A stretch of DNA of 64,000 bases from a virus. Taxonomy: Duplodnaviria; Caudoviricetes. The stretch lies in IMG/VR virus record IMGVR_UViG_3300048060_000061, positions 1-64,000 of that record; one strand, 5' to 3'. The translations under genes and the position numbers were made by a program. Positions 12,303 to 52,718 of the stretch are shown here, in pieces (position 1 is the stretch's first letter; every line of letters starts with the position of its first letter). The notes beneath the pieces were generated by a model. That model saw nothing but the letters and a program-made list of their open reading frames with translations, had not been told where the DNA came from and did not search any database.

Positions 12303-13250
12303 ATGAGCAAAGAAGTTTATATTTATGGATTGTATGATCCAGAAAGTAGGGAGTTAAGATATATAGGTAAGACAGTTAACCTTAATAACCGATTGTGGTA
12401 TCATCTTAGAGATGCCAAAGGAGGTCAAAGAACACACAAGGCAGCGTGGATAAGAAAATTATTGCGTCAAGGATTAGAGCCTATTATATCACCAATTTGG
12501 GAGACAACAGAAGAAGGATGGCAGGAAGATGAAAAAGCCTGTATTGCTCAGGCGTTAAGCGAAGGGGCTAATCTGACAAATTTAACAAAGGGTGGCGACG
12601 GGATTATAGGTTATAGCCATTCTGACGAGACTAAAGAAAAGATCAGAAAATACAATCTTGATTCTGGTAGAATCCCTCCTAATTGGAAAGGGCGAAAACA
12701 ATCACCTGAACATATCGCCAAGCGGGTTGAGACACGCCGAAAAAACGATACTTATGCACATACTGCTGAGACTAAAGAAAAAATAAGTGCCAATCGCAAG
12801 GGTAAGGCAATGGGCAATACTAATACTTTGGGTATGAAACATACTGATAAGTGGAAGAAGGCTCAAAGTAAAAGATCGTCAGGTGAGAATAATGCATTTT
12901 ATGGCAAGAAACATTCTGATGAAACTAAGAGAAAAATCAGTGCTGCTAAAAAGGGGACCAAGGCTTCAGAAGAAACCAAGGCAAAGTTAAGCGCAGCGCA
13001 GCAAAAGCGCATACGAGATAAGCAGGCAAAACATATAGCCCAAATCGCTATCCCTTACGATGAACTGATTACCATGTCGGATGATCCGCAGATAAACGAG
13101 ATACGCCGTCTATATGTGGAAGGAATGACCAAAAAAGAGATAACTGAGCATCTTGGTTATAAGAGTTATGGCGGCGGTAGGTTTTATACGAAGATGAGTA
13201 AAGCGATAAAGAGTATACCTATTACAGGGAAGGGGAATGATGAAACTTAA
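12303..13250 (+). CDS. GIY-YIG homing endonuclease with NUMOD3 repeats
   Basis: VYIYGL...RYIGKT, NLTKGGDG, repeated HSDETKEKI/HTAETKEKI/HSDETKRKI. Confidence 0.9.
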   Translation: MSKEVYIYGLYDPESRELRYIGKTVNLNNRLWYHLRDAKGGQRTHKAAWIRKLLRQGLEPIISPIWETTEEGWQEDEKACIAQALSEGANLTNLTKGGDGIIGYSHSDETKEKIRKYNLDSGRIPPNWKGRKQSPEHIAKRVETRRKNDTYAHTAETKEKISANRKGKAMGNTNTLGMKHTDKWKKAQSKRSSGENNAFYGKKHSDETKRKISAAKKGTKASEETKAKLSAAQQKRIRDKQAKHIAQIAIPYDELITMSDDPQINEIRRLYVEGMTKKEITEHLGYKSYGGGRFYTKMSKAIKSIPITGKGNDET

Positions 13251-13809
13251 AACGCAAAAACAGATAAAAACTAAAGATGATATTTTTGAATTAGGCATTA
13301 TTGATTTCAACCGACTTAATGGGGTTTTTCAAAATCCAAATGATGCCTTGAATACTATATTTAGCTGGTACGAATTAGGTGCAATTGTATCGATAATTGA
13401 TTGCTCTGATATCTGGGGGGAAGTCAAGACACGTAATGACTTTCCAGGATGGAAACATGTTGGAACCCATGTAGAAGTGGGAAAAAAATATTGGGACTTT
13501 TTTTGGGCAAATTTTGAAGGTTTAGAGAATACATGGCTACAATTTTCTGATAGTCCAGACTTTCAAGGGGCTATTGAAGGAAAAACGTTTTGGGGTGATA
13601 TAGGTCAAGTTTCTGCAAGCGCTTTTGCTATATCTCAAAAGCAAATGGATAAAGGTTCATTATGGATAACTATAATAGATAATGGCAATACACATGTATT
13701 GATTGAATCACTGGTTAATATAGTAGATATATTTGGTAATATGTGTTTTGGAGAAGATAAGCCCATACGGTATTCATATCAATTATCTATGTTCGGAGAT
13801 ATAGAATGA
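13237..13809 (+). CDS. Hypothetical protein
   Basis: 190-aa ORF coupled to both neighbours; no recognised motif. Confidence 0.5.
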   Translation: MMKLKTQKQIKTKDDIFELGIIDFNRLNGVFQNPNDALNTIFSWYELGAIVSIIDCSDIWGEVKTRNDFPGWKHVGTHVEVGKKYWDFFWANFEGLENTWLQFSDSPDFQGAIEGKTFWGDIGQVSASAFAISQKQMDKGSLWITIIDNGNTHVLIESLVNIVDIFGNMCFGEDKPIRYSYQLSMFGDIE

Positions 13810-14639
13810 CCCCTTACTATGACCACAACGGGATCGCCATCTATTTGGGAGATTGCCTGGAGATTATGCCTCAGTTGGGCTTGGTAGATATGGTTTTTAC
13901 TGATCCACCTTATGGTCATAATAATAACAATAATGGTGATTTAATATCTCGCCGGGAAGCTGCTTTAGGTACAGGGGATTATATAGCGGAAAGAGATGAT
14001 AGGCCGATTAAAAATGATGGTATTGAAGCTAATAAACTATTCAAGGATTTTCTGAATGGGGCAAAAAAGCTATTAAAACCTGGCGCTTGTTGTTGTTGTG
14101 GTGGTGGTGGTGGCCCTGATCCGCAATTTGCAAGATGGTCTTTATGGATAGATGAAATGTTAGAATTCAAGCAAATGATAGTTTGGGATAAAGGACCTAT
14201 AGGAATGGGCTGGCATTATCGCCGTAGCTATGAGACTGTTTTGGTAGGACAAAAACCAGGAGCAAAATGCTATTGGTTTGATAATAGTAAAACCATAGAA
14301 AATATTATTCGACCAGGAAACGGTATAGCCAAGATTATACCTAATAAAGAGCAACATCCTACCCAAAAGCCTGTGGAATTAGCCTCTTATTTTATCAGGC
14401 TTCATACACAAAAAGGAATGATTGTCCTTGATCCGTTTATGGGTTCCGGCACAACCCTAGTTGCCGCCCAAAACGAAGGCCGCCGAGCAGTCGGTATAGA
14501 ACTCTCCGAAGAATATGTAAAAATGGCTATAGACCGCCTTCGCCAACCCAGCTTCTTCTCAATCCCCAACAGTCCCAAGGTGAAAGCAGCGATAGAACAG
14601 CCAACCCTCTTTGACACCGACCAAGGCGGTGACGAATGA
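13806..14639 (+). CDS. DNA N6-adenine/N4-cytosine methyltransferase (beta class)
   Basis: GDCLE, TDPPY, HPTQKP, DPFMGSGTT, GIELS in beta-class order. Confidence 0.9.
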   Translation: MTPYYDHNGIAIYLGDCLEIMPQLGLVDMVFTDPPYGHNNNNNGDLISRREAALGTGDYIAERDDRPIKNDGIEANKLFKDFLNGAKKLLKPGACCCCGGGGGPDPQFARWSLWIDEMLEFKQMIVWDKGPIGMGWHYRRSYETVLVGQKPGAKCYWFDNSKTIENIIRPGNGIAKIIPNKEQHPTQKPVELASYFIRLHTQKGMIVLDPFMGSGTTLVAAQNEGRRAVGIELSEEYVKMAIDRLRQPSFFSIPNSPKVKAAIEQPTLFDTDQGGDE

Positions 14640-14696: not shown

Positions 14697-15137
14697 TTGA
14701 AAACACTTAGAATATTATTTAAAAGAAAGGGCAGAGGCTCTACTATGGCAAAAAGACCATTTTTTCTTTACGATGATGATTTTATTACACAGCAAGATTT
14801 GCAAGACAGACTGTCAGACCTCGAAAATTCTCTTTGCCATAAAATGAATGAACTTCGTGACAGATTTTTTATAAAAATCACTTCCCTAGAAGAAGAAAAC
14901 AAAATATTCAAGAAGCGTATTCATAGCCTTGAAAATATTATCGAACCTGATGAAACAGATGTCTATAACATCAACAGACGACTTGAATTATTAGCGCAAA
15001 AAATTGCAAACTTGGAGAGTAAGCAGAATAAACGATGGCAGAGAATGTCTTCCAAACCTGATGTAATCGTTCTTTTCGTAATTGCAGCCATTATAATATT
15101 AGGAAGGATAGCTTTTCTTTGGCTTGGGATATCATAG
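14697..15137 (+). CDS. Coiled-coil protein with C-terminal TM anchor
   Basis: Heptad pattern followed by VIVLFVIAAIIILG. Confidence 0.5.
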   Translation: MKTLRILFKRKGRGSTMAKRPFFLYDDDFITQQDLQDRLSDLENSLCHKMNELRDRFFIKITSLEEENKIFKKRIHSLENIIEPDETDVYNINRRLELLAQKIANLESKQNKRWQRMSSKPDVIVLFVIAAIIILGRIAFLWLGIS

Positions 15138-15786
15138 GATTTGTAATCAAAATGGAAATAAGTATTAAGTCAGAAAAGTTCAGAGGTGACGAATGAAAAT
15201 AAAACCCCGGCCCGAAAAGAATTTCACAGATTTTGATGATTGGTTAAAATCGCACAGAAAAAGAGATGAAAATGTAATAAAAGGCGAAAAAATACGTGAA
15301 GAAATACGTGAAGAAATCAAAGATAAACTCTCTCGACATTTTGGAGAGACGGAAGATCAAACTTGGTGTAAGTGTGACACTTGCACCTTAATAAGACTAA
15401 AAGCAGAAGGTGAAGGTACAATTAACAGCTTGGCACTTATTGGACTTCAGTTTTTACTTGGTCAGAATTTTAATGGAGCGGCGGCACTATATTATCACAC
15501 ATTCTATAAGGAAAGACAAGGTGATATAGACCAAGGTGGTGACGAATGACCCCTTTCGAAATATGGCAACAATCAGAGTGCGATATTCTTGGCATCACGA
15601 TAGACGAACATAACAAAATGATCGAAATAGCCAGTCAGATGGAGGCCGTAGGTTTCCCTGATGCGTATGACAAAATGAAATCTGCAACGAATGTGTTTTC
15701 ACCAAATAAATCTGTAAAGCAAGCCGGCCACGCCTGCTCTGCGAGGCAAAAAATACGGCAGACGTAACGCCTCCTAACTAGATATA

Positions 15787-15822
15787 GGGGCGGCCCATAT
15801 TAACTTGGCCGCCCCGCTTTTA
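15787..15822. terminator. Intrinsic terminator between converging units
   Basis: GGGGCGGCC...GGCCGCCCC hairpin followed by TTTT. Confidence 0.7.
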
Positions 15823-15854
15823 TTTGACACATAATTATTTTGCAGTACACTAAT

Positions 15855-15979
15855 CGGTCCACCCCCACGCCTGTGGGGAAAACTGGTAAAGCTAAGATGT
15901 CAGGTGGTCTAACAACGGTCCACCCCCACGCTTGTGGGGAAAACGAAAGCTGCCATCTGTTCGGTCCACTCCCATACGC
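15855..15979 (-). CRISPR. Mini-array 1 (type I-E-like repeat) downstream of tnpB
   Basis: Two 29-nt repeats GTTTTCCCCACA(A/G)GCGTGGGGGTGGACCG (15855-15883, 15916-15944), a 32-nt spacer, and a half-repeat (15962-15979) with a 17-nt spacer. Confidence 0.9.
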
Positions 15980-16070
15980 TATAATATTAAATTGTGAAGG
16001 TTTCGCTGTCAACCGAGCCAATGCAAGAAGGTTATCGACAGCGCAGTCACCCGCGAACCTACGGGCGATT
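15962..16070 (-). ncRNA. omegaRNA/tracr-like scaffold copy 1, overlapping the tnpB stop codon
   Basis: Homologous to 17804-17924 and 23670-23790 with compensatory stem changes; overlap with the tnpB 3' end is typical of omegaRNA. Confidence 0.8.
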
Positions 16071-17333
16071 ATAATCAGGATTTACGAAAAGTCGTATCCC
16101 CTCGTTTCTCAGGTTAATAGCTGCGTTCAGATCACGTTCATTCTGTTGTCCGCAGCCTTCGCAAGTCCATATCCTGTCACTCAAAGTTAGGTCAAGTTTT
16201 TTTTCTCCACATCCTGAACACAACTTAGATGAGGGGAACCACTGATCTACTATACCAATAGTACCATTATAAAAATCAGCTTTATATTCAAATTGCCGTT
16301 TCATTTCGTAAAAGCCAGCATCAGAAATAGCTTTGGCTAATTTATGGTTTTTTAGCATCCCGCCAACATTTAAGTCTTCGAGAATGATAAGGCCATAATT
16401 CTTTGTGACGTTTGCTGTCAATTGATGTTGAGCGTTGCGCCGTAGATTTTTAATCCTGGTATGTAGATTTTTAATTTTGTGCTCAGTTCGTAGCATCTGG
16501 TTAGACTGATTTTTCGGACGTTTGCCTTTTTTCACTGTGCCATCTTCATTGTAGCATCCTGGATTATTAGACCGGCGTTGTCGGTCTAATTTCCGTTGCA
16601 ATCGCCTTAACTGAGCCTGTGCTTTATAATATGCTTTAGGATTTTCAATAGTTTCGCTATCGCTAGTAACGGCAAGATATTTAATCCCCAAGTCGACTCC
16701 TACGATTTCAGAACTTGGAATAATATCAGGCTTTTCAAACTTAACCTGAATTGAGGCCCAAAACCATTGACCGTCATAAGAGAAGGTAGCGTTCATTATC
16801 TTGCCCTGAAAACGCAATTCTTCGCACATTCTGATATAACCAACTTTGGTATTATAGCGAATATGTTGACCGTCTAATTTCAGACAGATATTAGTAGCCC
16901 GGAAGCTATTATGGTTTCGTTTGCTGCGCCAATTTAACCAGCCTGATTGACGGTAATCCTTGCGAGGTTTGTCATTATGACTATTGATTTTGACCTTACC
17001 CTTACGAATGTCAAAGTATCGTTGCAATCCCTTTTGCAAGTCACCAAAAGCCTCTTGAGTAGCACTGGCAGTTTTATCCTTCACCCAATCTGGTTTAATT
17101 TTATTGTACAGGGCTTTGAGGCTCTTTTGCTCGGTCACTTTATCATTAACAGTAATTGATGTGAATTTGTAATTTTCACCAGTTTCACGATAGGTTATTC
17201 GGTTTAGATCATACTCAAAATCGAGTATCTCTTTGCCGAAATTCCAGGCATTACGGGCGGCTGCAAAGGCCCTCATTAGGTGTTGCTTTTGCTTTTCGGT
17301 TGGTCTAAGTCTAATTTTGTGTGATCTTATCAT
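16059..17333 (-). CDS. tnpB: TnpB-family RNA-guided nuclease, CRISPR-flanked, no transposase partner
   Basis: N-terminal HKIRLRPT...ARNAWN; RuvC I GVDLG, RuvC II LEDL, Zn finger CSGC/CEGC, Ruv[13 protein letters not shown]. Confidence 0.92.
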
Positions 17334-17369
17334 TTTATTAGAATGTAAAGTAATTTCAGTCGGTTTATT

Positions 17370-17803
17370 CGGTCCACTCCTACGCTTGTAAGAAAAACGG
17401 ACAAACTTGTGTTTTAAGAAAAGGGCGGTCCACCCTCACGCTTGTGGGGAAAACCGTTACGCCTATTGCTACCACAGATGCCACTCCGGTCCACCCCCAC
17501 GCTTGTGGGGAAAACCCAAACACAGCGCAAGCTGCCACAAGTTGATCCGGTCCACCCCCACGCCTGTGGGGAAAACAAACATTATGACGGTCCACCCCCA
17601 CGCTTGTGGGGAAAACTCATCACAACGTTTGCAATCGGTCATATCGCACCGGTCCACCCCCACGCTTGTGGGGAAAACGTTGCCCTGAGATTTGTTGTTT
17701 TGAATAGGCGTACGGTCCACCCCCACGCTTGTGGGGAAAACTCATCACAACGTTTGCAATCGGTCATATCGCACCGGTCCACCCCCACGCTTGTGGGGAA
17801 AAC
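17370..17803 (-). CRISPR. Mini-array 2 (8 repeats, 7 spacers) upstream of tnpB
   Basis: Repeats start at 17370 (degenerate), 17426, 17487, 17548, 17588, 17650, 17713, 17775; spacers 27, 32, 32, 11, 33, 34, 33 nt. Confidence 0.97.
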
Positions 17804-17924
17804 ACTACTAACGTGTAACATTCACCCACACGCTATAATATTAAATTGTGAAGGTTTGACAGACAACCAAGCCAACGCTCTAGGGTTCACGTCTGTCCAG
17901 TCACCGGCGGACCTGCCGGCGATT
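17804..17924 (-). ncRNA. Scaffold copy 2 / array leader
   Basis: Hairpin CGCCGGC-AGGTCC-GCCGGTG, stem GACAGAC..AACC/GGTT..GTCTGTC, anti-repeat ACCTTCAC. Confidence 0.8.
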
Positions 17925-18063
17925 TGTTTTCTAATTCCAATCGGTTTAACTCAGCAACGACCAGCCGGTGAACTATTAACACCTGCGGTTCCTTGGTGAG
18001 TTTTTTGATTTGTCTGATTACTTCTAGGGTATCAACCCATAATTTTGTTGATTCTCGATCCAT
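17887..18063 (-). CDS. Small ribbon-helix-helix-like regulator (58 aa, not in ORF track)
   Basis: MDRESTKLWVDTLEVIRQIKKLTKEPQVLIVHRLVVAELNRLELE...: strand-helix-helix pattern; follows promoter at 18095-18122. Confidence 0.6.
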   Translation of the reverse strand: MDRESTKLWVDTLEVIRQIKKLTKEPQVLIVHRLVVAELNRLELENKSPAGPPVTGQT

Positions 18064-18094
18064 AAATCATATTTATCACAAACTGTTTTCTGCC

Positions 18095-18122
18095 ATTGTA
18101 CCACTTTTGTACCCTTTGTCAA
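18095..18122 (-). promoter_or_regulatory. Promoter of the RHH-scaffold-array-tnpB unit
   Basis: TTGACA-16-TACAAT with TGn extension; contains GGTACAA twice. Confidence 0.65.
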
Positions 18123-18207
18123 ACTTAGAGATGTTTAAAGAATTAGTACAGGCAGCCTATGTTATGGTATAATATTAGCAGTTATATCTGGTTTCTCCTT
18201 TTATCGG

Positions 18208-18244
18208 AAAGACCGCCCGGTGTTTTAACCGGGCGGTCTTTTTA
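18208..18244. terminator. Bidirectional terminator after Ro60
   Basis: AAAGACCGCCCGG-loop-CCGGGCGGTCTTT. Confidence 0.8.
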
Positions 18245-18288
18245 TATTAATGGTAAGACTATCTCAACTGACATTTTAGCGACGATTA

Positions 18289-19890
18289 CTATTCTATCCT
18301 GTCAGCCTTTACAAAATCGCTTATCACTTGCGGCGTAGATGTATCAAACCCTATAACATCCAGCATACCACTATCTTCAGGGTCAGCAACACTAAATCCA
18401 CTGGGAGTCATCCCCACTACAACAAGCTTGGATGGAATTTCCATTTGATGGCGATATTGTTGCAGCGCTTGTACAGGATGGATATTACCAGCCCAGGTTT
18501 CATTATCCGTATAGACAATAAAAGTATCTATTTCAATTCCGTTTTGTAGCGCATACAACATTGGTAAAGCGCAATCGGTCCGCCCCCACGGAATATCATA
18601 TATCTGTTGGATAACATCATCTAATCGTTGTCGGGCGGATAAAGTGACCGGGATCATTTGATGACTAAAAGCCGTAATTATATGATGTGGTTCCATTCTG
18701 GCTGTAATCATAGCCATTGCTCCAGTAGCTTCGCGAGGTGTAATAGGCATCCCGGCGATAGTATTCCAACTCATTGAAGCCGAAACATCAAGAGCTAGCA
18801 TTGTCCGTTTATTAGTTATTTCGGTATTACCAAATGACAAATAGAAAGCCTCATCTAATGCGTTAATAATTTCAGTAATCGGTGACCAAGATAATCTGCC
18901 TTTCATTCCGTGACCCTGGGCGTAAATTTTTAGAGCTACCAAGATAGCCAAGGGATGAAGTCGCGACTTTTTGATATAGGCTTGATCAGTTAATTTACCG
19001 ATAATAAGGCTTGTTTCGTTCCCCATCGGTTTTAATAATCCCACCCGTGTCATTTTCCCTAAGTTTCGTATTAACGCCGTAAGAGGCATTTTTTGTAGAA
19101 GGGCGCTCCAAATGGCAGGCTCGTTAAGCCATTTGGTCGGGATCATTTCGCGAGTAAGACCTTCATCTAAAATAAGGGAAACTATAGCCAATTTGTTTGT
19201 GGCAACCTTGGCATGCTCAAAGGCGGCAATTAAATCTATATCGCCATATTTTGCTTCTGGGTTACCGACAATCCATTTATATAGGTCATTTCGCATATCT
19301 GCGTCCTTAGAATTATCCGGTATTGGATGGCTGAGGCGTAAAGCATCTCGATGACTCCATCCGTCGCGTTGCTGGTACTTAATTACTTGATAGGCCAGTT
19401 TATCGACAGGCATATAATTGTACCAATTAGCTACAGCCCGGCGTAAGCCTCGTCCCCAACCCCGAAAGCCCTCAACGTATTCAAGGAAATGGAAAAGGTG
19501 AGTACCAATGCGGGCCACTTGCGGAAGTACATCAAAGGCCGCCCGGCGCGTTTCAATATCTCCTATTCCAGCACATATAGCTAACGTAAACAAAGCTGGA
19601 TCGTTCTTGGGCGCTCGACCACCTTTACTGACTTCAACGACTTTAGCAACAACTTGTGGACCGTTATTTTTGATACAGCGTACCACTGCCTGCGCGTTAT
19701 CAATTGTTAATTTTCGTTCATTGGCATAGTAGGTCCCCCCCTCAGATCCCAGGACAAGAAAACGGTCCAGGCGTATCCAGTCATCGACTGCAAAGACATA
19801 CCCCCCGGCCGAATTTTTGACCATTTGTTTATCTGGAATTGCTTGGGTTTGTGGAGTTTGTCTGATTGAAAAATGCTGTCTGTATTTCAT
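18289..19890 (-). CDS. rsr: Ro60 / TROVE-vWA RNA-binding protein
   Basis: NSAGGYVF, RFLVLGSEGGTYY, GWGRGLRRAV, KYQQRDGWSHRD, MPLTALIRNLGKMT, vWA DVSASM, YTDNET, GFD; start placed at ATG 19890 after GGAG RBS. Confidence 0.95.
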   Translation of the reverse strand: MKYRQHFSIRQTPQTQAIPDKQMVKNSAGGYVFAVDDWIRLDRFLVLGSEGGTYYANERKLTIDNAQAVVRCIKNNGPQVVAKVVEVSKGGRAPKNDPALFTLAICAGIGDIETRRAAFDVLPQVARIGTHLFHFLEYVEGFRGWGRGLRRAVANWYNYMPVDKLAYQVIKYQQRDGWSHRDALRLSHPIPDNSKDADMRNDLYKWIVGNPEAKYGDIDLIAAFEHAKVATNKLAIVSLILDEGLTREMIPTKWLNEPAIWSALLQKMPLTALIRNLGKMTRVGLLKPMGNETSLIIGKLTDQAYIKKSRLHPLAILVALKIYAQGHGMKGRLSWSPITEIINALDEAFYLSFGNTEITNKRTMLALDVSASMSWNTIAGMPITPREATGAMAMITARMEPHHIITAFSHQMIPVTLSARQRLDDVIQQIYDIPWGRTDCALPMLYALQNGIEIDTFIVYTDNETWAGNIHPVQALQQYRHQMEIPSKLVVVGMTPSGFSVADPEDSGMLDVIGFDTSTPQVISDFVKADRIE

Positions 19891-19926
19891 AAATATCTCC
19901 TCTGGATAGTAATAAATTTGAACAAC

Positions 19927-19958
19927 AAAAAGAAGCCGGGAAATCCCGGCTTCTTTTT
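19927..19958. terminator. Bidirectional hairpin between Y RNAs and Ro60
   Basis: AAAAAGAAGCCGGG-AAAT-CCCGGCTTCTTTTT. Confidence 0.75.
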
Positions 19959-19964
19959 GTAATA

Positions 19965-20089
19965 TAGGCAAATTATTGAAATTGGGGCTTTTAGTGCTCT
20001 ACCACTGAGCTACCCGCCTTGGTAGGCGGGGCTGGATTTGAACCAACGACCACTCTCTTTCAAGGAGATAACCCAACATCGTCCGGCCC
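19965..20089 (-). ncRNA. yrlA: YrlA-like Y RNA with circularly permuted tRNA-like domain
   Basis: 5' GGGCCGGA and 3' AATTTGCC Ro-binding stem; T arm GTTGG-TTCAAAT-CCAGC, closed acceptor CCCGCC/GGCGGG, D arm GCTC-AGTGGTA-GAGC; adjacent to Ro60. Confidence 0.85.
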
Positions 20090-20110
20090 ATATCGTATTC
20101 TTAAAGAAAC

Positions 20111-20168
20111 CGGGCAAATTTGCTGTTGTGGAATTCTATTTTAAGAATAATCCATAACATCCGGCCCG
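20111..20168 (-). ncRNA. Second, short Y RNA without tRNA-like domain
   Basis: Same termini (GGGCCGGATG...AATTTGCCCG) enclosing only a simple hairpin. Confidence 0.65.
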
Positions 20169-20273
20169 ATAAAATTATTTTAGCATGCTTTGGAAATCTG
20201 TCAAATTTGTAAAATTCTTCCAGGTCAGATAGAATACTATTAAATACTGAACGAAGAAAGCAGAGGCTTTGGT

Positions 20274-21038
20274 ATGAAAGTTCATTCATTGACTATATTG
20301 CACTACGGCGCGGATTATCTATCCTACGCCTTAAGATCAGTTTACCACAACGTAGACCAACTCCACATATTTTACACACCAACCCCCTCACATGGTCACA
20401 GTACAAATACCCCTCCGATAGAAACCAAAGAACAATTACTTCAGGCAGCTTATGCCTATAACCCTGATGAAAAGGTCAGATGGTATGATATGCTTGGAGT
20501 TACGCAAGAGGGCCCTCAGCGCGATCTTGCCTTGCGGACGGTTCAGGCGGCCGGCGCTGAATTGGTTGTGGTTGTAGATTATGATGAAATTTGGGGAAAT
20601 GGTGTTTTGGAGGAAGTATTATATCAAATTTACAATGATGGGACTGCAAGAAATAACTTAGTAAACATGGTACATCTCTGGCGCTCATTTAATTGGTGTT
20701 GCAGAGATGAAGGCTGGCCAGTTCGGATTATTGATTTGCGTCAGAATAATGATAATGTTTTATATATTCCCAAAGAATTTGACATTTATCATTTTGGTTA
20801 TGCTGTAACTAATCAAATCATTAATTATAAGTGGCAAATCCACGGTCATAAAAATGAAATGCGTCCAGGATGGTTAGAAGATGTTTGGGCTATATGGCCG
20901 CCAATAGATAATTGCCATCCGACGAACGGCCGCAACGATGAAGGTAAGGCGTTTTGGTCGCCTGAACCATTCGACAAAACGCAGTTTCCGGAGTTTATGC
21001 GGGAGCATCCATTTTGGGATTTAGAGATGATAAGATGA
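20274..21038 (+). CDS. Glycosyltransferase (GT-A fold)
   Basis: YLSYALRSV, QRDLAL, VVDYDE (DxD), YHFGYA. Confidence 0.75.
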   Translation: MKVHSLTILHYGADYLSYALRSVYHNVDQLHIFYTPTPSHGHSTNTPPIETKEQLLQAAYAYNPDEKVRWYDMLGVTQEGPQRDLALRTVQAAGAELVVVVDYDEIWGNGVLEEVLYQIYNDGTARNNLVNMVHLWRSFNWCCRDEGWPVRIIDLRQNNDNVLYIPKEFDIYHFGYAVTNQIINYKWQIHGHKNEMRPGWLEDVWAIWPPIDNCHPTNGRNDEGKAFWSPEPFDKTQFPEFMREHPFWDLEMIR

Positions 21039-21925
21039 GTGAAATTGTTTTTGCCAAGCCTGTGCATCAGTATGATTCATACAGAGACTTTTGGACTTTG
21101 GTAACTCTATCGGGGTTTTCCACAGTATCAGTGAGTGATATAGACCTGACCAAAGATATTATCTATATCACTGCTCCAATGAATGGAGATTATAAGGAAC
21201 ATTTCTATGGTGATCTTAAACACTATGAGGAAACCGGGGAAATGATTGGTGGAGAACTTCAAAGACGGAAAATATCTGGTCAACAACGTTTGGCTCATTT
21301 AATTGTCTGGAATCTTGAAAGACCAGCCGGCAGTGGCAGCACCGGAAATTATGCTAAAGATTGTTTCAAATGGATGGAAACTAGAATTGCTGACGAAGTT
21401 TGGATTAGCGATCCGATGCTGGCTGATGAGACGCAAACACGCTTCGTTTTGCTTGGCTCTCATCCGGGATTAGGTGAATTATCAGACAAAAAGTCTTATG
21501 ACTTTTGCCATATGAGCTTGGTGAATCCCAGGCGAACGACAATATACAAACACTTTAAAGACAAATTTCGGATAGGCCCCAACTGCTGGCCACCTGAACG
21601 TGATGAAGTACTGGCCAGCAGCAGGTTTGCTTTGAATGTTCATCAAGATAACTATCCATTCTGCGAACCACTTCGCTTCGCGCTTTTTGCAGCCTATGGA
21701 TTGCCGATTATTTCAGAGATTTTGGCAACCGGTCATCCGTATAATGATGTGGTTACTTTTTCTTATCATGATCTGGTAGCCGGCCTTAAAGTTGCTTTGA
21801 ATGATGATTATGATCAGTGGAAAGCACGCGGAGCGGCACTGCATCAAAGGCTATGTTATGATTTTCAGTTTGGCGATATAGTAAGGAAGGCGGTTAGCGA
21901 GAGCGCAGGAATAAGATGGAGATAG
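21035..21925 (+). CDS. Putative glycosyltransferase (GT-B-like C-terminus)
   Basis: ERDEVLASSRFALNVH...EPLRF...PIISE. Confidence 0.65.
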   Translation: MSEIVFAKPVHQYDSYRDFWTLVTLSGFSTVSVSDIDLTKDIIYITAPMNGDYKEHFYGDLKHYEETGEMIGGELQRRKISGQQRLAHLIVWNLERPAGSGSTGNYAKDCFKWMETRIADEVWISDPMLADETQTRFVLLGSHPGLGELSDKKSYDFCHMSLVNPRRTTIYKHFKDKFRIGPNCWPPERDEVLASSRFALNVHQDNYPFCEPLRFALFAAYGLPIISEILATGHPYNDVVTFSYHDLVAGLKVALNDDYDQWKARGAALHQRLCYDFQFGDIVRKAVSESAGIRWR

Positions 21926-22836
21926 AGAAAGTAGCTGATATGAGCATACTAAAACTATGTTATATTGAAAATAATAAAGCATACTTTACTACTCAAAAAT
22001 TATCCCAACAATGGGGAACAAATTGGGATGAAATTGATTATCAACATAACGCAGGGGAACCATATAAACCTATCCTTTATAAACATTTTAACGAAGATGG
22101 GACGCCTAAATGGATAATTGAAAAAGTGTTCTTTTATGGGACGTTTAAGCGGGCTGGTACCGACTTATGGGATAATCCATATTCAGTTGAGATGATAAAT
22201 AAGGGTAGGGTTCCTTGGTTAACTCCTTATAAAGAGCAAGGAATTCCGCCTATAATGGCGGGTATTACTTTGGAAGAATTTATCAAATTTATAAAGATAC
22301 TTTGTCCAAGATGCATGCAAGAAACAAACAATGATTTCGGAGAGGATTGCAATTTATATGTTGAAGTAATGGGCAATACAGAAAGTCTGCGTTTTATGTG
22401 TAATGACTGCGCTATTTGGGCCTGGAATAGATTGGAAGGGTTATTAAAGAAATCGGGAGAATAATGACCAAGAAAGAAATTATCATAACAGAGGAGATAT
22501 ATATTGACGGGAAATTTGCAGGAAAAACAGCCAAATGTATCAGGGATGGGCGCGGCTTTTTGGGTTATATGTTGCCGATATTTGTAGGTATCATTACATA
22601 TATGCAGATTGTAGTTTGGTCATAGGAAAAATGACCAATGGAGAACAAGGAATTGAGTACGGAATTAATACTCAGCAGGAATTTCTCAAAATTAAAGAAA
22701 TTAGAAATTTCCGAACCTGATATAGATGATGTTATATATAATCTAAATTGTTTGATAGGTTATTTCAATGCTATTGAACACTATGGGGCGTCAAATACAG
22801 CTCTATGTGCAAAGCAAATAATAAAGAGTTTGAAAA

Positions 22837-23646
22837 ATGACATCAATTAGCGGCTTTACCTTTGGACATAATTTGATAGACAGCGGCTATCCAATCGTCG
22901 AGGCAATCCGGGCCATACAATCTTACGTTGATGAGATCGTTTTTGTTGATATGCAGTCAACGGATAATACGCGAGAAGTTTTGGATCAATTGGCTGAAGA
23001 CAATGCTTCCAGGGGTTCATATATGGACATTCTTGGTTTACCTCGTCATTATCCTCCTATCAAAATTCTTGAAGGCTTCTGGGGAAACCAAGCCGGTGAG
23101 ACCTTACGCCAGGCCCATTCAAAACACATCGAATGTTCAGGAGATATAATTGTCCACTTTGAAGCAGATGAAGTATTTGATTATGAGCTTATTCAGGGGG
23201 TTATTGAATTGATTGAAAATGGGCAGACTGATATTGCCGTCTATCGGTTGCAGATTGAAACAAACTTTCAGCGATGCCGTTGGTATCCTGAGCCTGTACA
23301 TAGAGTTTTTCCGCGTTTAAGCAACACACGGAAAGAAGGACATACGACAAATCGACATGCGCAAGCGTTTGTCATTGGGCCAGAAAATGGCTATTTGTGG
23401 GACATCACGAATAGCTTTAGGGATAATTGGATAAACCGAGTAAATAAGCAAGCTGAATTACGAAATACTAATCCGCAATATTTAATGACACCGATCCATG
23501 CACTTCATAAAGTTGAGTTGACAGAAGCTGAGGCGCATCAATGGCTTTTTAGTGGACGGCACTGGACTTGGACAGAGACACCATTTAATATCCCTGAGAT
23601 TTTAAGGCCGCTTGTGGGAGTTACTCGATATGAACCAAAAGTATGA
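22837..23646 (+). CDS. Glycosyltransferase family 2
   Basis: YVDEIVFVDMQSTDNTREVL; FEADE. Confidence 0.8.
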   Translation: MTSISGFTFGHNLIDSGYPIVEAIRAIQSYVDEIVFVDMQSTDNTREVLDQLAEDNASRGSYMDILGLPRHYPPIKILEGFWGNQAGETLRQAHSKHIECSGDIIVHFEADEVFDYELIQGVIELIENGQTDIAVYRLQIETNFQRCRWYPEPVHRVFPRLSNTRKEGHTTNRHAQAFVIGPENGYLWDITNSFRDNWINRVNKQAELRNTNPQYLMTPIHALHKVELTEAEAHQWLFSGRHWTWTETPFNIPEILRPLVGVTRYEPKV

Positions 23647-23669
23647 AGGATCAGAAGAAATTAAAAGAA

Positions 23670-23790
23670 AATCGCCCGTAGGTTCGCGGGTGACTGGACA
23701 GACGTGAACCTTCTCGCATTAGCTCGGTTGTCTGTCAAACTTTCACAATTTAATATTTAAGCGTGTGGGTGAATGTTACACGTTAGTAGT
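23670..23790 (+). ncRNA. Scaffold copy 3 (orphan, no adjacent nuclease)
   Basis: CGCCCGT-AGGTTC-GCGGGTG hairpin, GACAGAC/GTCTGTC stem, ACTTTCAC anti-repeat; homologous to copies 1 and 2. Confidence 0.8.
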
Positions 23791-23944
23791 GTTTTCCCCA
23801 CAGGCGTGGGGGTGGACCGCGTTTGTCAAGGACTGCTACCAATTGGGACGTCAGTTTTCCCCACAGGCGTGGGGGTGGACCGACATTGCCGACGTGTACG
23901 GGATTAGTTTTATTGGTTTTCCCCACAGGCGTGGGGGTGGACCG
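23791..23944 (+). CRISPR. Mini-array 3 (3 repeats, 2 spacers)
   Basis: GTTTTCCCCACAGGCGTGGGGGTGGACCG at 23791, 23854, 23916; spacers 34 and 33 nt. Confidence 0.95.
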
Positions 23945-23970
23945 TAATTTTCCAGGATGTTCGTGATTTA

Positions 23971-24886
23971 ATTGTGAAATTATTGGGCGTTGGAGCAAAT
24001 GAAATGCAAAATACCTAAACTTAAAATTATGAGACCTGATTTGTGTAAAAGGATTATTTATGAACGACCACTCCAGAGGAAGTAAATGGGAGAATTAAAA
24101 TGTCGATGAGTACACATGTGATTTTTCTTAGAGATAAAACCGATTTGCAGTATCAAAAGTTCCTCAAGGTACTGTTGGCTTGCAAAGAAGCTGGCATTGA
24201 TCTACCCAAGGAAGTAGATGATTATTTTGGCGGGGACGGACTTGATAATGACCCAGAAGAACCTTTACAAATGTCATTTGAACCTCGCGAGTGGATCAGT
24301 GATATGTCCGAAGGATTTGAAATTGATATTAATGAAATACCACCAGGCGTGAAAACAATACGGTTTTATAATTCATGGTAGATAATGGACAGAGTTACTT
24401 TATAAGGCAAGAATGTAAATGTGAGGAATGTAAAAATAGTTGCGCTTATAAACCTGGTTGGTTTTTGCCGGGAGAAATTGAAAAAGCTGCACAGTATCTA
24501 ATGATGTCTGAGCAAGAATTTTTCGATCAATATTTAGGAGTTGATTGGTATGAAGATTTTAATGACATATTTGTACTTGCTCCAGCTATAACGAGTATGT
24601 ATCCGGGAGAAGAATATCCTGCTAACCCAAAGGGGCAATGCGTTTTTTTTCATAATGGATTATGTAATATTCATTCTGTTAAACCGTATGAATGTATAGA
24701 AAGTTATCATGCGGATACTTATGATATAAGTCAAAAAAGACATTCTTTTGTAGCACAAACATGGATAGATAAACAAGACTATATTTGCACATTATTAGGA
24801 CGCGATCCTGAAAAAGAGGGATATGCTTTTTTTGATGCATTTTTATGGTGATTATTGTGAAATTATTGGGCGTTGGAGCAAATGAA
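23971..24886 (+). repeat. 33-bp direct repeats (23971-24003, 24854-24886) flanking two small genes
   Basis: ATTGTGAAATTATTGGGCGTTGGAGCAAATGAA occurs identically twice. Confidence 0.9.
24375..24851 (+). CDS. YkgJ-like cysteine-cluster (Zn/Fe-S) protein
   Basis: CKCEECKNSC and CVFF..GLCNIHSVKPYEC. Confidence 0.75.
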   Translation: MVDNGQSYFIRQECKCEECKNSCAYKPGWFLPGEIEKAAQYLMMSEQEFFDQYLGVDWYEDFNDIFVLAPAITSMYPGEEYPANPKGQCVFFHNGLCNIHSVKPYECIESYHADTYDISQKRHSFVAQTWIDKQDYICTLLGRDPEKEGYAFFDAFLW

Positions 24887-25668
24887 TGAACATTGACTTT
24901 ATCACGTTTTGCCATCCAGGTGACTACCACCGACTTTACGCCAACACCTGGCTTATAGATATGATAGCCAGCCACGAAATATACTTTGACACAGTTCGCA
25001 TAGTACATCAGAGATGCGCGGGTTTAGATATTCCCAAGCCCCCCATTATCTGCGATTTGAATTGTGGGGCTTTGAATATTATTCCAAGCGAAACACACCC
25101 GAATATCCTAACTGAATTTGGCTATCCTGAAGAAGATCCAATAGCCAGTCGATGGACACATGGACCAACCGGCCCTCATTTCTATGTATATCATAATATA
25201 AATCACTTGATCGGTCTCAAAGTATCCGATGCCGATTACATCGTTTTCTCTGACTCCGACTGTACAATCAAGTCCCATGATCCCGGTCAAAACTGGATCA
25301 GAAAAGGCATTGATATTTTGCAAAGGTATCCAGAAATATTGATAGTCTCCCCCGGCGATGGCGCGACAATGGCAGAGGCCCTTACTGCCGAAGGCTATCG
25401 ACTTACCCAAAATGTTTCGCAACAACTTTTTTTGTGTAGCAGGCAGAGGCTTAAAAATGTAGATTTTAATATTCCTTGGAATTGGGAATTTTTGGCGCCG
25501 GGGGGACCATTTCAAGAATTCTATTATCTTCTGGAGGGGCGGATCTGGCGCTATATGCACAAACACGGGTTGTGGCGTTGTGTTCTACCTGATCATGTGG
25601 CAAGGTATTGGCATTTCAATAAATTGACTGATAATGGATTATTTGAAACTGATTACGAAAAATACTAA
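24886..25668 (+). CDS. Putative glycosyltransferase (GT-A fold)
   Basis: ADYIVFSDSDC DxD motif; cluster context. Confidence 0.65.
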   Translation: MNIDFITFCHPGDYHRLYANTWLIDMIASHEIYFDTVRIVHQRCAGLDIPKPPIICDLNCGALNIIPSETHPNILTEFGYPEEDPIASRWTHGPTGPHFYVYHNINHLIGLKVSDADYIVFSDSDCTIKSHDPGQNWIRKGIDILQRYPEILIVSPGDGATMAEALTAEGYRLTQNVSQQLFLCSRQRLKNVDFNIPWNWEFLAPGGPFQEFYYLLEGRIWRYMHKHGLWRCVLPDHVARYWHFNKLTDNGLFETDYEKY

Positions 25669-39832: not shown

Positions 39833-40396
39833 TCATAATGATTTCTCCAATCTCTCTATCGCATCGACATACAGTTGCCCGCGTGGGGGGCAGGCATAAT
39901 CACTGCCGCCCCAATGGTCGAGGGCATCAAATTTCTTGAACGATCGGCAACCGCTATTATACCAATCTTGCCCATCTTTATACCATCTAATAAGAATGTA
40001 ACCATCCTCGCGACGGGGATCCTTTAATAGAACCTCTATCCCTTTGCAATTTTCGATTGTTGCAAAATTAAGTTTGGCGTCGCGCAGGTTGGCCCCAATC
40101 AGATTGGCGTCGCTCAGGTTGGCCCAGCGCAGGTTGGCCCCGTTCAGGTTGGCCCCGCTCAGGTCGGCCCCGCTCAGGTCGGCCCCGCGCAGGTCGGCCC
40201 CAATCAGCTTGGCCCCGCGCAGGTCGGCTCCAATTAGCTTGGCCCCGCGCAGGTTGGCCTCGCGCAGGTCGGCCCCGCTCAGATTAGTGTTCGTCAAGTT
40301 AGCCCTGCTCAGGTTAGCGTCACGCAGATCGGCGGCGCGCAGGTCGCCGCCGGTCAGGTTGGCCCTACTCAGATTTTGCTTTTGCTCTGTATTCAT
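39833..40396 (-). CDS. Pentapeptide-repeat protein
   Basis: Same N- and C-terminal constant regions as 34987, different repeat tract. Confidence 0.92.
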   Translation of the reverse strand: MNTEQKQNLSRANLTGGDLRAADLRDANLSRANLTNTNLSGADLREANLRGAKLIGADLRGAKLIGADLRGADLSGADLSGANLNGANLRWANLSDANLIGANLRDAKLNFATIENCKGIEVLLKDPRREDGYILIRWYKDGQDWYNSGCRSFKKFDALDHWGGSDYACPPRGQLYVDAIERLEKSL

Positions 40397-40527
40397 TGGT
40401 TAGTCCTTTCTCGCTAGTTAAATTACTCAGTCTTAAATACAAGTATAACCGATTTTAACTAATTTCAATAATTTAAGGTAGTATTCTAATTTGTTCTATC
40501 TATCTCTTGCCTTAAGCCTTTGAAAAA

Positions 40528-40632
40528 TTGATAAACGTTCCATAATTCGCTATAATGTAAGAAACACATAAGCCCGGCGCAAGCCTCGCGTACATCAGGT
40601 TCGGAAACTCACCTTTACGGTGAGTTTTTTTT
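40528..40632 (+). promoter_or_regulatory. Structural-operon promoter + structured leader + terminator, copy A
   Basis: TTGATA-17-TATAAT; AGCCCGGCGCAAGCCTCGC..CATCAGGTTCGG; AAACTCACC-loop-GGTGAGTTTTTTT. Confidence 0.75.
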
Positions 40633-40642
40633 GTGAGAACCT

Positions 40643-41860
40643 ATGGCGAGATCTGATACTGTCACTTTACTTCCTCTTGATCGCTATGCACAGATTATGC
40701 AAATCCCTCTCCCACATTTTAATCAGATGAATGGTAATAAGGCTCCAAAAGTTGGAGCTAATTGTAATAGTTTGTGGGACCAAAACGCCAGAGATGCGTT
40801 AGCCTGGGTAATGGCACAGGCAGAGGAGATGATTGCAGAATATCTCAATTTCTGGCCTAGCCCAAAATTCATTACCGAAGAAGAAATTCAATTCAGTTTG
40901 CCGGGAATTCGGAGTGATTGGTGGCACGCAGAAGTTCCAACTCGGTGGTCTAAAATAGACTGTTTTGGAACTGAACAGTTAACGCTAAAAATGGCTGATG
41001 CTAATGTCATTTATACCAATTCAAATAATAATCCGAATGATCGAGAAAACTTGGCGACTATCTCAAGTACCGGTCTTTATGTTGACGAACTGGGCGCATG
41101 TGATGACAAGTGCGAGGTGGCCGTATTCTTTCGTGAGGCAGATGGGGCAGAAGACTCGGCAGATTGCCGATGGGAGATAAGACCACTCAAGGTGGATATT
41201 GATGGTTCAACTATGTCAATAACCGGTGATAGCGCAATGTTTGTAAAACCCGAGCTTTGGGAATTGACTGAACTTGAATCAGAAGGTTCTGTGGATAGTG
41301 AAGCATGGGAGATTAACTTCGATACCGCTAATCTTGTTTCACAAGTAGATGTCTATTGTAGAACAGTCAACCAGGCAACACCTGTTACCCTGCTCTGGGA
41401 AGGTATATGCGATTGCCCCGGCGTGTGTGAACATTCAACTCAAACAGCTTGCGCGTATAGGACTGATAAACGACGCGGTTTTTTCGTCCCAAGGTCGGCT
41501 ACCTGGAATGGCACAAGAAATATTTTTGCCAGTCCATTACATCGCCATATTGCACCCGAAAGTCTACAAGCAAATTATCGGGCGGGGATGCCTCTTGATA
41601 AATCTTGCAGGATGAACCAGTCAATGGAGCGGGCCATCGTAAAGCTGACAAATGCCCTGCTTCCTGAGCCGCCGTGTTCGTTTTGTGGTGATGTAGCCGT
41701 GAGAATTTGGCAAGACGACCGCAAGGCAGTCGATCCGTTGACTCCTGAAGCGGCCAGCATGCCGTTTGATATCTACAAACGCGGTGCGCTTGAAGCCTGG
41801 CGAATTATTAAATTGTTCGCTAGAGGTAGGGGCGGTAAAATGGGCAGAGGATATCGTTGA
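40643..41860 (+). CDS. Head-tail adaptor / head completion protein
   Basis: QAEEMIAEYLNF and ANYRAG...MERAIVKL adaptor-like motifs; lies between head and tail genes. Confidence 0.55.
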   Translation: MARSDTVTLLPLDRYAQIMQIPLPHFNQMNGNKAPKVGANCNSLWDQNARDALAWVMAQAEEMIAEYLNFWPSPKFITEEEIQFSLPGIRSDWWHAEVPTRWSKIDCFGTEQLTLKMADANVIYTNSNNNPNDRENLATISSTGLYVDELGACDDKCEVAVFFREADGAEDSADCRWEIRPLKVDIDGSTMSITGDSAMFVKPELWELTELESEGSVDSEAWEINFDTANLVSQVDVYCRTVNQATPVTLLWEGICDCPGVCEHSTQTACAYRTDKRRGFFVPRSATWNGTRNIFASPLHRHIAPESLQANYRAGMPLDKSCRMNQSMERAIVKLTNALLPEPPCSFCGDVAVRIWQDDRKAVDPLTPEAASMPFDIYKRGALEAWRIIKLFARGRGGKMGRGYR

Positions 41861-42034
41861 TACAATCTTCGCGTAAGACTGCGGCCCACCTGACGCTCTG
41901 ATTTCTCGCTGTAATTCGGTCTATTATTGCCTGCGGTAATGGAGCGGTTGCCATAAAAACAAAAACTCACCATTGGTTGATGAGTTTTTGACTAGTACTG
42001 GCAAATATATGGCAACAAATCTTTTTGCAATCAG

Positions 42035-42223
42035 CTAAGTATTCTGATCTAAAGCCATCCTAACCAGCATGCAAATGTATGTCGCCATTGGTATAAGGCC
42101 ACGTTCTTTCTGTAGGCGGTCGTACAATTCGGGCGGCATTGTTACCATGTGCCGCACGAACTTTTTTTCCCCCTTGCTTGCTTTGGTCTTTGGCCCTGTT
42201 TTGGATCGTGTATTGCTTTCCAT
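42035..42223 (-). CDS. Ribbon-helix-helix (CopG/Arc-like) protein
   Basis: RHMVTMPPELYDRLQKERGLIPMATYICMLV. Confidence 0.65.
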   Translation of the reverse strand: MESNTRSKTGPKTKASKGEKKFVRHMVTMPPELYDRLQKERGLIPMATYICMLVRMALDQNT

Positions 42224-42281
42224 AATCAGTTCCTTTCATAGTGCGAAAATTCAAATCATCCCAAAATATATTCCACTTTTG

Positions 42282-42719
42282 TCACGTTTTAGGCACGAAC
42301 CCTTTGCAATTTTCTAACCTGGCCTTGTTTAGGTTAGCCTCGTTCAAGTTGGCTCCGTTCAAGTTGGCTCCGTTTAAGTTGGCTCCGCGCAAGTCAGCCT
42401 CACTCAGGTTAGCGTCGGTCAGGTTGGCGTCGCGCAAGTCAGCCCAGCGCAAGTCAGCGCAGGTCAGGTTAGTATTTGTCAGGTTGGCCCCGATCAGGTC
42501 GGCTCTGATCAGTTTGGCATCGGTCAGATCGGCTCCGATCAACTTGGCTCCGATCAGCTTGGCTCCGATTAGTTTGGCGCTGTTCAAGTCGGCATCGCGT
42601 AAGTCGGCCCTGCACAGGTTGGCCCCGATTAGCTTGGCCCCGCACAGGATAACCCTGTTCAGATCGGCTCCGTATAGGTCAGCTCCGTATAGGTTGGCGT
42701 CGCGCAGATTTTTCTTCAT
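42282..42719 (-). CDS. Pentapeptide-repeat protein, C-terminal domain truncated
   Basis: Repeats ending ARLENCKG. Confidence 0.9.
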   Translation of the reverse strand: MKKNLRDANLYGADLYGADLNRVILCGAKLIGANLCRADLRDADLNSAKLIGAKLIGAKLIGADLTDAKLIRADLIGANLTNTNLTCADLRWADLRDANLTDANLSEADLRGANLNGANLNGANLNEANLNKARLENCKGFVPKT

Positions 42720-42746
42720 AATGTTTAGTCCTTTATAGTATTTTCT

Positions 42747-52621: not shown

Positions 52622-52627
52622 ATAAAG

Positions 52628-52711: not shown

Positions 52712-52718
52712 AAAATAG

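Follow-up and report, generated by a model that had tools for sequence, protein, structure and literature searches.

One-piece and array-heading forms of a putative TnpB guide RNA scaffold among type I-E CRISPR repeats of a Chloroflexi phage

The 3' end of the phage gene tnpB-1 is overlapped by a structured element that runs through half of a CRISPR repeat and a 17-nt segment into a short array of complete type I-E repeats. According to the explanation that accounts best for this stretch, and that can be given with moderate confidence, it is the 3' end of the tnpB-1 guide RNA gene and belongs to a phage system half-way between a transposon nuclease and type V CRISPR. Five lines of observation carry this reading: the anatomy of the scaffold copies, their conserved fold, the identity of the repeats with those of type I-E, an intact nuclease active site, and searches of the phage in which no Cas6e, Cas1e or transposase was found. 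Transcription, a pseudoknot, refolding of the tails of the array-heading copies and the use of either RNA form by TnpB are presumed in the model.

The phage and the tnpB-1 unit

The DNA analysed here (the window) is a stretch of 64 kb and forms part of a complete phage record of 103,196 bp, which has terminal repeats and a G+C content of 42%. The host of the phage is Chloroflexi. On the minus strand of the window, the tnpB-1 unit runs in the order promoter, 58-aa ORF, scaffold copy c2, tail, array 2, tnpB-1, scaffold copy c1, 17-mer, two repeats and hairpin (Table 1). The closing G+C-rich hairpin is likely to be a two-way terminator; it was read directly from the DNA and was not among the elements given by a consensus promoter/terminator scan. 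The 58-aa ORF, called an 'RHH gene' in an earlier reading made from the sequence alone (hereafter the sequence-only reading), had no match in a Pfam search, and its final 28 nt ahead of the scaffold are also found upstream of c5.

Table 1. Positions of the features of the tnpB-1 unit and of the scaffold copies and arrays (window coordinates unless the phage record is named)
Feature	Position	Strand	Description
G+C-rich hairpin (GGGGCGGCC...GGCCGCCCC)	15787-15815		ends the minus-strand unit; read directly
Mini-array 1	15855-15944	minus	repeat 15944 to 15916, 32-nt spacer 15884-15915, repeat 15883 to 15855
17-mer AACAGATGGCAGCTTTC	15961 to 15945	minus	candidate c1 guide or shortened spacer
Half-repeat GCGTATGGGAGTGGACCG	15979 to 15962	minus	3' arm of hairpin 3 and putative pseudoknot strand GGACC (15967-15963)
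Scaffold c1, 109 nt	15962-16070	minus	hairpins 1-3 and tail TGGACCG; 117.6 bits to covariance model R1
c1 hairpin 1	16068-16047	minus	loop AGGTTC at 16060-16055
c1 hairpin 2	16043-16004	minus	
c1 hairpin 3	16000-15969	minus	
tnpB-1, 424 aa	16059-17333	minus	RNA-guided nuclease; Pfam HTH_OrfB_IS605, OrfB_IS605, Cas12f1-like_TNB
Degenerate eighth repeat R8 of array 2, GTTTTTCTTACAAGCGTAGGAGTGGACCG	17370-17398	minus	preceded by a 27-nt spacer
Array 2	17426-17803	minus	seven full repeats; spacers of 33, 34, 33, 11, 32 and 32 nt
Scaffold c2	17819-17924	minus	type B tail GCGTGTGGGTGAATGTTACACGTTAGTAGT at 17804-17833
58-aa ORF	17887-18063	minus	crosses hairpin 1 of c2; stop codon in hairpin 2
Consensus promoter	18122-18095	minus	strong; 11/12 hexamer positions match
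Scaffold c3	23670-23775	plus	type B tail at 23761-23790
Array 3	23791-23944	plus	three repeats; spacers of 34 and 33 nt
Scaffold c4	88273-88378 (phage record)		heads a five-repeat array at 88394-88672
Scaffold c5	89148-89250 (phage record)		93% identical to c1; fused, without array

Several other elements were recorded in the phage. Upstream of the unit lie a GIY-YIG/NUMOD3 homing-endonuclease-like gene (12303-13250) and an N6/N4 DNA methyltransferase gene (13806-14639). A gene for a Ro60/TROVE protein occupies 18289-19971 on the minus strand, and a Y RNA-like YrlA match was obtained at 19963-20089 (47.5 bits, under the gathering score of 69; E 2.6e-08); gene and match together would amount to a Ro60-Y RNA pair carried by the phage, immediately upstream of the TnpB unit. 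Positions 1-127 and 62187-62313 of the window hold an exact 127-bp repeat, and a 14-nt probe from it also matches near 103136, at the end of the record (about 103070-103196); the phage thus seems to possess its terminal repeat in a third copy, at an internal position. Furthermore, a 65-nt element whose 3' end is a hairpin with a T run is present three times (40571-40635, 44086-44150 and 55179-55243; 89-100% identity), two of the three copies being placed within 183-nt repeats that flank pentapeptide-repeat genes. Genes for pentapeptide-repeat proteins, with a 15-nt period, are found at 39833-43325 of the window and at 89711-89840 of the phage record. Two spacers of a Chloroflexi type I-E array match these pentapeptide repeats (24/26 and 22/24 aligned nt); as a host link such matches are weak at best, because the target is repetitive.

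The TnpB-1 protein

TnpB-1 contains the RuvC triad and the C-terminal zinc finger of TnpB proteins, the motifs having been aligned with a solved TnpB-like chain. Its best solved relative is ISDra2 TnpB (E 4.6e-39). In an alignment with 24 close relatives, which share 54-84% protein identity with it, the RuvC residues D214, E319 and D401 and the four cysteines of the CxxC...CxxC motif are invariant. The relatives recovered by locus searches of viral contigs (with the single protein and with the alignment), metagenome contigs (with the alignment) and 401 Anaerolineae genomes show at most 40% identity, and among cultured phages the best protein identity is 33%, with no DNA match.

Residence in a transposon, that is, an adjoining TnpA and defined ends, was not seen for tnpB-1. 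Instead, the gene sits inside a CRISPR array, with arrays adjoining it on both sides, and neither a Y1 transposase nor a serine recombinase/transposase was found in a search across the complete phage. Since the repeats are of type I-E and neither Cas6e, Cas1e nor a transposase was found in the phage, TnpB-1 is a domesticated TnpB joined to arrays of class 1 origin.

A second TnpB-like gene, encoding 459 aa, is located on the minus strand at 53470-54849 and is accompanied by an array at approx. 53170-53440. The repeat of that array, GGTTTCCCCACGGGCGTTTGGAGGATCAG, keeps the type I-E-like 5' half and has a different 3' tail on the spacer side. Four tRNA genes (52548-52974) come after this second tnpB.

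Two classes of scaffold

A search of the whole record with c1 yielded five scaffold copies in the full phage, of which two are fused and three head arrays. In c1 and c5 (type A), the motif TGGACCG joins the scaffold to an unrelated, unique segment, whereas in c2, c3 and c4 (type B) the scaffold is followed by TGAATG (CGAATA in c4), by TTACACGTTAGTAGT and by the first repeat. In a trimmed alignment, the TGGACCG of type A stands opposite the TGAATG of type B, so that type B resembles a type A scaffold whose last segment has been mutated. The coexistence of fused and array-heading layouts in one genome, as proposed in the sequence-only reading, is borne out by c1 and c5 on the one hand and c2, c3 and c4 on the other, and the two forms are 77-93% identical.

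The stop codon of tnpB-1 (TAG, 16061-16059) lies within the loop of hairpin 1 of c1. Every sequence quoted in the sequence-only reading is present where it had been placed, and direct reading confirmed for c1 the succession of scaffold, half-repeat GCGTATGGGAGTGGACCG, 17-mer and full repeat and, for c2 and c3, that GCGTGTGGGTGAATGTTACACGTTAGTAGT stands directly before the first repeat and that GGACC is absent. Relative to GCGTGGGGGTGGACCG, which is the 3' half of the repeat, the half-repeat contains substitutions and a 2-nt insertion, and its final 7 nt (TGGACCG) are identical. It is not a chance resemblance, as a half-repeat occupies the same scaffold position in the independent copy c5, which ends in GCGTGTGGGTGGACCG, a sequence with one base different from the last 16 nt of the repeat; c5 then continues into a unique stretch (AGTAGTGGTTCGAATCTACTTCTTCAACC...) that is not followed by any repeat. 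The 'AT linker' that had been described between scaffold and half-repeat does exist, but it is the loop of hairpin 3. Similarly, the 17-mer does have the length of a TnpB guide, as had been pointed out, but this is a single case, and spacers of 11 and 27 nt occur as well, so that the length proves nothing. Copy c1 may be the least fit of the five because it has the sole broken pair in hairpin 3 and two extra bases between hairpin 3 and GGACC. Moreover, c1 contains a consensus promoter (TTGACA, 17 nt, TAATAT), from which a transcript could begin at the half-repeat and lack the scaffold.

The scaffold was not recovered elsewhere: an Rfam search of positions 15000-25000 returned no family, RAGATH-18 included, a DNA pattern of the scaffold had no match in IMG/VR, and a covariance model of the five copies detected no scaffold in 165 loci of distant TnpBs (at most 40% identity). 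Searches for targets covered both forms. The 17-mer, the c5 guide and the spacers have no match in the phage itself or in the other loci examined, and IMG/VR contains no exact copy of spacer 1 of array 2. Eight exact matches of the 17-mer were found in IMG/VR, with no common flank and with three of them in one conserved gene family, a number judged to be about chance level.

At the c5 locus (89148-89285 of the phage record) there is no tnpB, no array and no integrase nearby, and the neighbours are pentapeptide-repeat genes. The segment of c5 after GTGGACCG resembles the T arm and the acceptor 3' strand of a tRNA (AGTGG TTCGAAT CTACT TCTTCAA C). Nothing in 401 Anaerolineae genomes or IMG/VR matched this tRNA-like guide, nor did any of the five tRNAs of the phage, and the likeness of the guide to a tRNA is a lead only.

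Fold, covariation and the putative pseudoknot

Each scaffold comprises three hairpins, with 26 pairs of which 99.2% of cells are paired in the five copies; the only unpaired cell is a C-A in hairpin 3 of c1. Compensatory changes are seen in five pairs, one in hairpin 1 and four in hairpin 2, the helix of the latter being wholly swapped between type A and type B. The observed pairing or covariation score was reached by none of 500 shuffles, and in a slid control, in which the pairing partner was moved by 1-3 columns, pairing falls to 30-43%. This shows that the fold is under selection in all five copies; the covariation is that of paralogues of one genome and not wide conservation.

In c1 and c5, GGACC is found at positions -6 to -2 before the guide. 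The sole complement of GGACC in each scaffold is the loop of hairpin 1, which reads GGTCC in c2 and c4 and GGTTC in c1, c3 and c5, and the complement falls in that loop in approx. 1% of shuffled scaffolds. These sequences suggest a pseudoknot between GGACC and the loop of hairpin 1, which would comprise only 5 bp and is represented by only two loop variants. The RNA of ISDra2 TnpB has a pseudoknot between its 5' region and nucleotides -6 to -2, just ahead of the guide; the hairpin that precedes these nucleotides joins a tracr-like half to a crRNA-like half, and the RNA has been called a natural single guide by the authors of the structure (PMC10097598). By analogy, hairpin 3 of the phage scaffold, with its A+T-rich loop, would be the joining hairpin of the ISDra2 plan. 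Sequence and covariation thereby outline a structured RNA that starts at the 3' end of tnpB-1 and ends with the putative pseudoknot strand and a guide. Because GGACC at -6 to -2, its complement in the hairpin 1 loop and the joining hairpin 3 fit the ISDra2 plan, c1 has the appearance of an ordinary TnpB guide RNA gene, of which the half-repeat would be the crRNA-like half. The natural single guide that the sequence-only reading saw in c1 thus has the expected anatomy, namely scaffold, GGACC at -6 to -2 and guide, as in ISDra2 (PMC10097598).

The type I-E repeats

The full 29-nt repeat has 12 matches in the window and none in 100 shuffles. The phage repeats have the length of 29 nt, the hairpin and the ACCG end of the type I-E family, and the spacers of 32-35 nt are of type I-E length, the exceptions being the 11-nt and 27-nt spacers and the 17-mer. 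A 26-nt pattern of the repeat was found in 39 stretches of prokaryote genomes, where the arrays comprise as many as 76 repeats. Nearly all of these stretches belong to Anaerolineae or other Chloroflexota, and in one such genome the array follows Cse2, Cas7e, Cas5e, Cas6e and Cas1e. In particular, the CACAGG variant of the phage repeat is identical at 29/29 positions to 35 repeats of one Chloroflexi genome. Judged by these sequences, the phage repeats are true host type I-E repeats.

Cas6e and Cas1e were looked for in the phage and not detected, so that the arrays have no Cas6e/Cas1e genes of their own there, and they have no host-type leader either, the host type I-E leaders being unlike the scaffold. 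In array 2, a 33-nt spacer is duplicated (17742-17774 is the same as 17617-17649) and another spacer (17577-17587) has only 11 nt; these are signs of internal duplication and deletion.

Tails of the array-heading copies

According to the sequence-only reading, c2 and c3 look 'tracr-only'. This description does not hold, as both arms of hairpin 3 are kept in the type B copies, although a pure tracrRNA would have no use for the full hairpin, and TGAATG aligns with TGGACCG. The tail of type B is conserved, and the three variable positions among the tails are all located in the loop of a tail hairpin. When c2-c4 are folded with their tails, the minimum-energy structure has TTACACGTT of the tail paired to the 3' arm of hairpin 3; the tail hairpin (-10.2 kcal/mol, compared with -6.9 kcal/mol for hairpin 3) is used in all three type B copies. 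This predicted refolding leaves ACCTTCAC single-stranded, and in cofolding predictions the freed ACCTTCAC pairs with GTGGGGGT of the repeat, with a gain of 10.3 kcal/mol for a half-repeat crRNA and 3.5 kcal/mol for the full repeat. The tail hairpin together with the GTAGTGTTTT behind it was flagged as terminator-like in c2 (17835-17809) and c3. By their sequence, c2-c4 look like one-piece RNAs in which the pseudoknot strand has been disabled and a 15-nt tail frozen, and the predicted refolding would be a way for them to act as tracr-like partners.

Proposed mechanism and possible users of the arrays

In the preferred model, c1 and c5 would be one-piece guides, each made of three hairpins, TGGACCG and a guide (in c1 the 17-mer AACAGATGGCAGCTTTC), with GGACC and the hairpin 1 loop forming the pseudoknot. 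Copies c2, c3 and c4 would be versions of this RNA in which mutation has turned the pseudoknot strand into TGAATG. Their fixed 15-nt tail would fold back on the 3' arm of hairpin 3, so that ACCTTCAC is freed and the hairpin 1 loop is left unpaired; both would then be open to base pairing with a repeat of the array that follows the scaffold, namely with its 3' half (GTGGGGG...GGACC). In this way the array-heading copies might serve as tracrRNA-like partners for crRNAs.

The host may be the user of the arrays rather than TnpB. Virus-borne mini-arrays that exploit host Cas proteins are known, and the phage arrays could be mini-arrays that employ the type I-E Cascade and Cas3 of the host, e.g., against competing phages, in which case the scaffold copies would be promoters or leftovers, and the half-repeat and 17-mer of c1 a decayed repeat and a truncated spacer. 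As the repeats are the host's own type I-E repeats, the use of host Cascade stays a live rival, albeit an unlikely one. It would account for true type I-E repeats over their full length, including a 5' half that TnpB would not need, for full-length spacers of 32-35 nt, for a phage without its own Cas6e and Cas1e, and for the promoter-like hexamers within the scaffold. However, each array is headed by a scaffold with compensatory changes that are needless for a promoter, the scaffold is unlike host leaders, and TGGACCG of c1 and c5 is also the native end of a TnpB guide scaffold; moreover, the tail of the second TnpB's repeat (GGTTTCCCCACGGGCGTTTGGAGGATCAG) should not suit a type I-E complex. 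Because that tail is hardly usable by Cascade, arrays of this kind are here more likely to serve TnpB, and both TnpB and host Cascade may use them. It is far less probable that the element of approx. 105 nt is simply a CRISPR leader whose likeness to a TnpB guide RNA is incidental. In favour of a leader, four arrays have the element directly 5' of their first repeat, oriented as type I-E repeats are transcribed, and promoter-like hexamers occur in it; nevertheless, like TnpB guide RNAs, it starts at the stop codon of tnpB, is also present at c5 without any array, has helices that covary, and ends in a half-repeat, which is absent from leaders. The leaders of hosts with the same repeat family are unrelated to it, and the identification of the scaffold as a host-type leader was rejected on this ground.

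A further arrangement, which is rather doubtful, is that TnpB-1 is loaded with crRNAs produced by the class 1 machinery of the host. Cas6e cuts the type I-E repeat after the hairpin and leaves an 8-nt 5' handle (E. coli, Thermus). The handle expected here, GUGGACCG, is exactly the last 8 nt of c5, in which GCGTGTGG is followed by GTGGACCG and the guide. Hairpins 1-3 of an array-heading scaffold, which has no GGACC, could be joined to a Cas6e-cut crRNA by a GGACC:GGTCC pseudoknot, and the handle and scaffold would rebuild the guide in trans. If this is true, a class 2-like nuclease of the phage shares guides, and perhaps spacer uptake, with a class 1 system of its host.

Origin of the fused junction

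The preferred model also includes the capture of arrays. The arrays are built from the host type I-E repeat, whose last 16 nt are almost the same as the natural 3' end of the TnpB guide scaffold, and this homology between scaffold and repeat is probably the route by which arrays were captured through recombination. A 13-nt sequence, GGAGTGGACCGAA, occurs at 17380-17368, at the 3' end of R8 and extended by AA, and again in c1 (15972-15960), in both places with the unusual A of GGAG, and it forms a direct repeat flanking the 1.4-kb tnpB-scaffold cassette. It is likely to be a trace of array capture. The junction of c1 looks recombinant, and its present fusion may be the product of recombination between a guide 3' end and a repeat, an event by which a TnpB could plausibly acquire an array.

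The same direct repeat can be read as no more than a recombination scar, left when the tnpB-scaffold cassette entered an existing type I-E array. The 17-mer would then be a shortened spacer, and the fusion recent and derived, with no need to be a working guide. This reading is unlikely, although several features are in keeping with it: GGAGTGGACCGAA, with its rare A of GGAG, flanks the cassette, deletion of the cassette would leave a continuous array of R8, the 17-mer and the next repeat, array 2 is rearranged in other ways too (the duplicated spacer and those of 11 and 27 nt), and c1 alone has a broken pair and a 2-nt insertion. Even so, such an event is compatible with a working guide, since its product still consists of a scaffold, a pseudoknot strand and 17 nt. 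Moreover, c5 has the same fused layout elsewhere, with a cleaner tail and without an array, and 13 nt is short for recombination, the AA extension being perhaps due to chance (1 in 16).

For the order of descent proposed in the sequence-only reading (fused ancestral, split derived), the evidence inside the genome is mixed. A fused RNA adjacent to the gene is the normal state of TnpB, and c5 is a clean second fused case, but the tail of c1 has GGAGTGGACCGAA in common with R8 across tnpB-1. Two further processes were considered for c1. A simple IS605 or IS607 insertion was discarded since a 9-13-nt duplication is not made by either transposase and the phage has no transposase. Homing of c1 to cassette-free arrays, with the repeat end as TAM, conflicts with arrays that feed the same nuclease, because every repeat-spacer junction would become a self target.

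Relation to known systems

By comparison, TranC and phage Cas12r are the closest known kinds. TranCs, which are transposon-CRISPR intermediates (Jin et al., Cell 2025), reportedly take reRNA as well as tracrRNA-crRNA. According to papers that cite the TranC work (PMC13565253, PMC13639567, bioRxiv 10.64898/2026.03.27.714800), TnpB-sized effectors are found by short CRISPR arrays, the guide is functionally split into a tracr-like RNA and a crRNA while the one-piece form is still present, and some TranCs are phage-borne (CauTranC9). The tnpB-1 unit resembles them in its effector, its short arrays, its one-piece copies and its phage carrier, and its array-heading copies may correspond to the split guide. 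As for the splitting of the guide, c2-c4 have no pseudoknot strand and their predicted fold exposes an anti-repeat, yet hairpin 3 is kept. The phage repeats, 29 nt long, are those of host type I-E, unlike the repeats of the TranC clades, which are given in the citing papers as 32-38 bp and of unknown subtype. Further differences from TranC are the several scaffold-array cassettes far from the gene and the one fused guide without an array. At the protein level, TnpB-1 was compared with LaTranC alone, and the similarity is weak and confined to the RuvC part (E 1.9e-23).

Cas12r of the Thermus Lalka phages (bioRxiv 10.64898/2026.04.20.719267) is likewise a TnpB-like nuclease of phages, with 29-bp repeats that have elements in common with the type I-E repeat of the host. 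Its spacers are 31-33 nt long, of which 18 nt are used, there are no phage adaptation genes, and its authors propose that adaptation is carried out by the type I-E machinery of the host (bioRxiv 10.64898/2026.04.20.719267). In contrast to TnpB-1 (424 aa), Cas12r has 564 aa, needs no tracrRNA and has its array 15 bp after the gene, whereas here a structured scaffold of approx. 105 nt lies ahead of every array. The phage system is set apart from TranC and Cas12r by its host class 1 repeats, its remote scaffold-array cassettes and the joint presence of fused and array-heading versions.

The omega/reRNA of ISDra2 TnpB (Nakagawa et al. 2023, PMC10097598) agrees with the phage scaffold in starting at the 3' end of tnpB and in its plan of a scaffold of approx. 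110 nt, a -6 to -2 pseudoknot, a joining hairpin between tracr- and crRNA-like halves and a guide of approx. 16 nt (PMC10097598). In contrast to ISDra2, there is no transposase and there are no transposon ends here, five scaffolds accompany one gene of the TnpB-1 type, and the crRNA-like half is the 3' half of a type I-E CRISPR repeat. In the tracrRNA:crRNA of Cas12f, the guide-proximal end of the repeat and the 5' part of the tracrRNA form a pseudoknot, as would be the case here, and the 3' end of the tracrRNA is paired with the remainder of the repeat (PMC10097598). The repeats of Cas12f are not palindromic and its tracrRNA is a separate gene, whereas a type I-E hairpin is part of the phage repeat itself and a full last hairpin is still present in the tracr-like RNA. 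A system of another kind is represented by virus-borne CRISPR mini-arrays, which, like the arrays described here, are short, have host-type repeats and are present in viruses without cas genes, but which, unlike them, are not known to stand behind the guide scaffold of a nuclease that the same virus encodes.

Significance

The step from a one-piece guide to a tracrRNA with an array is said to have been described mainly across lineages and by means of engineered splits. Here, a single phage genome holds both forms of the scaffold. Since their differences are confined to the pseudoknot strand and the tail, the minimal changes between the two forms can be read and tested directly. The findings also suggest an alternative to the duplication of transposon ends as a route to arrays, namely the capture of a class 1 array through homology between the 3' end of a guide and a CRISPR repeat. 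If TnpB-1 works with these RNAs, it would be a nuclease of 424 aa with both a natural single-guide and a natural dual-guide format.
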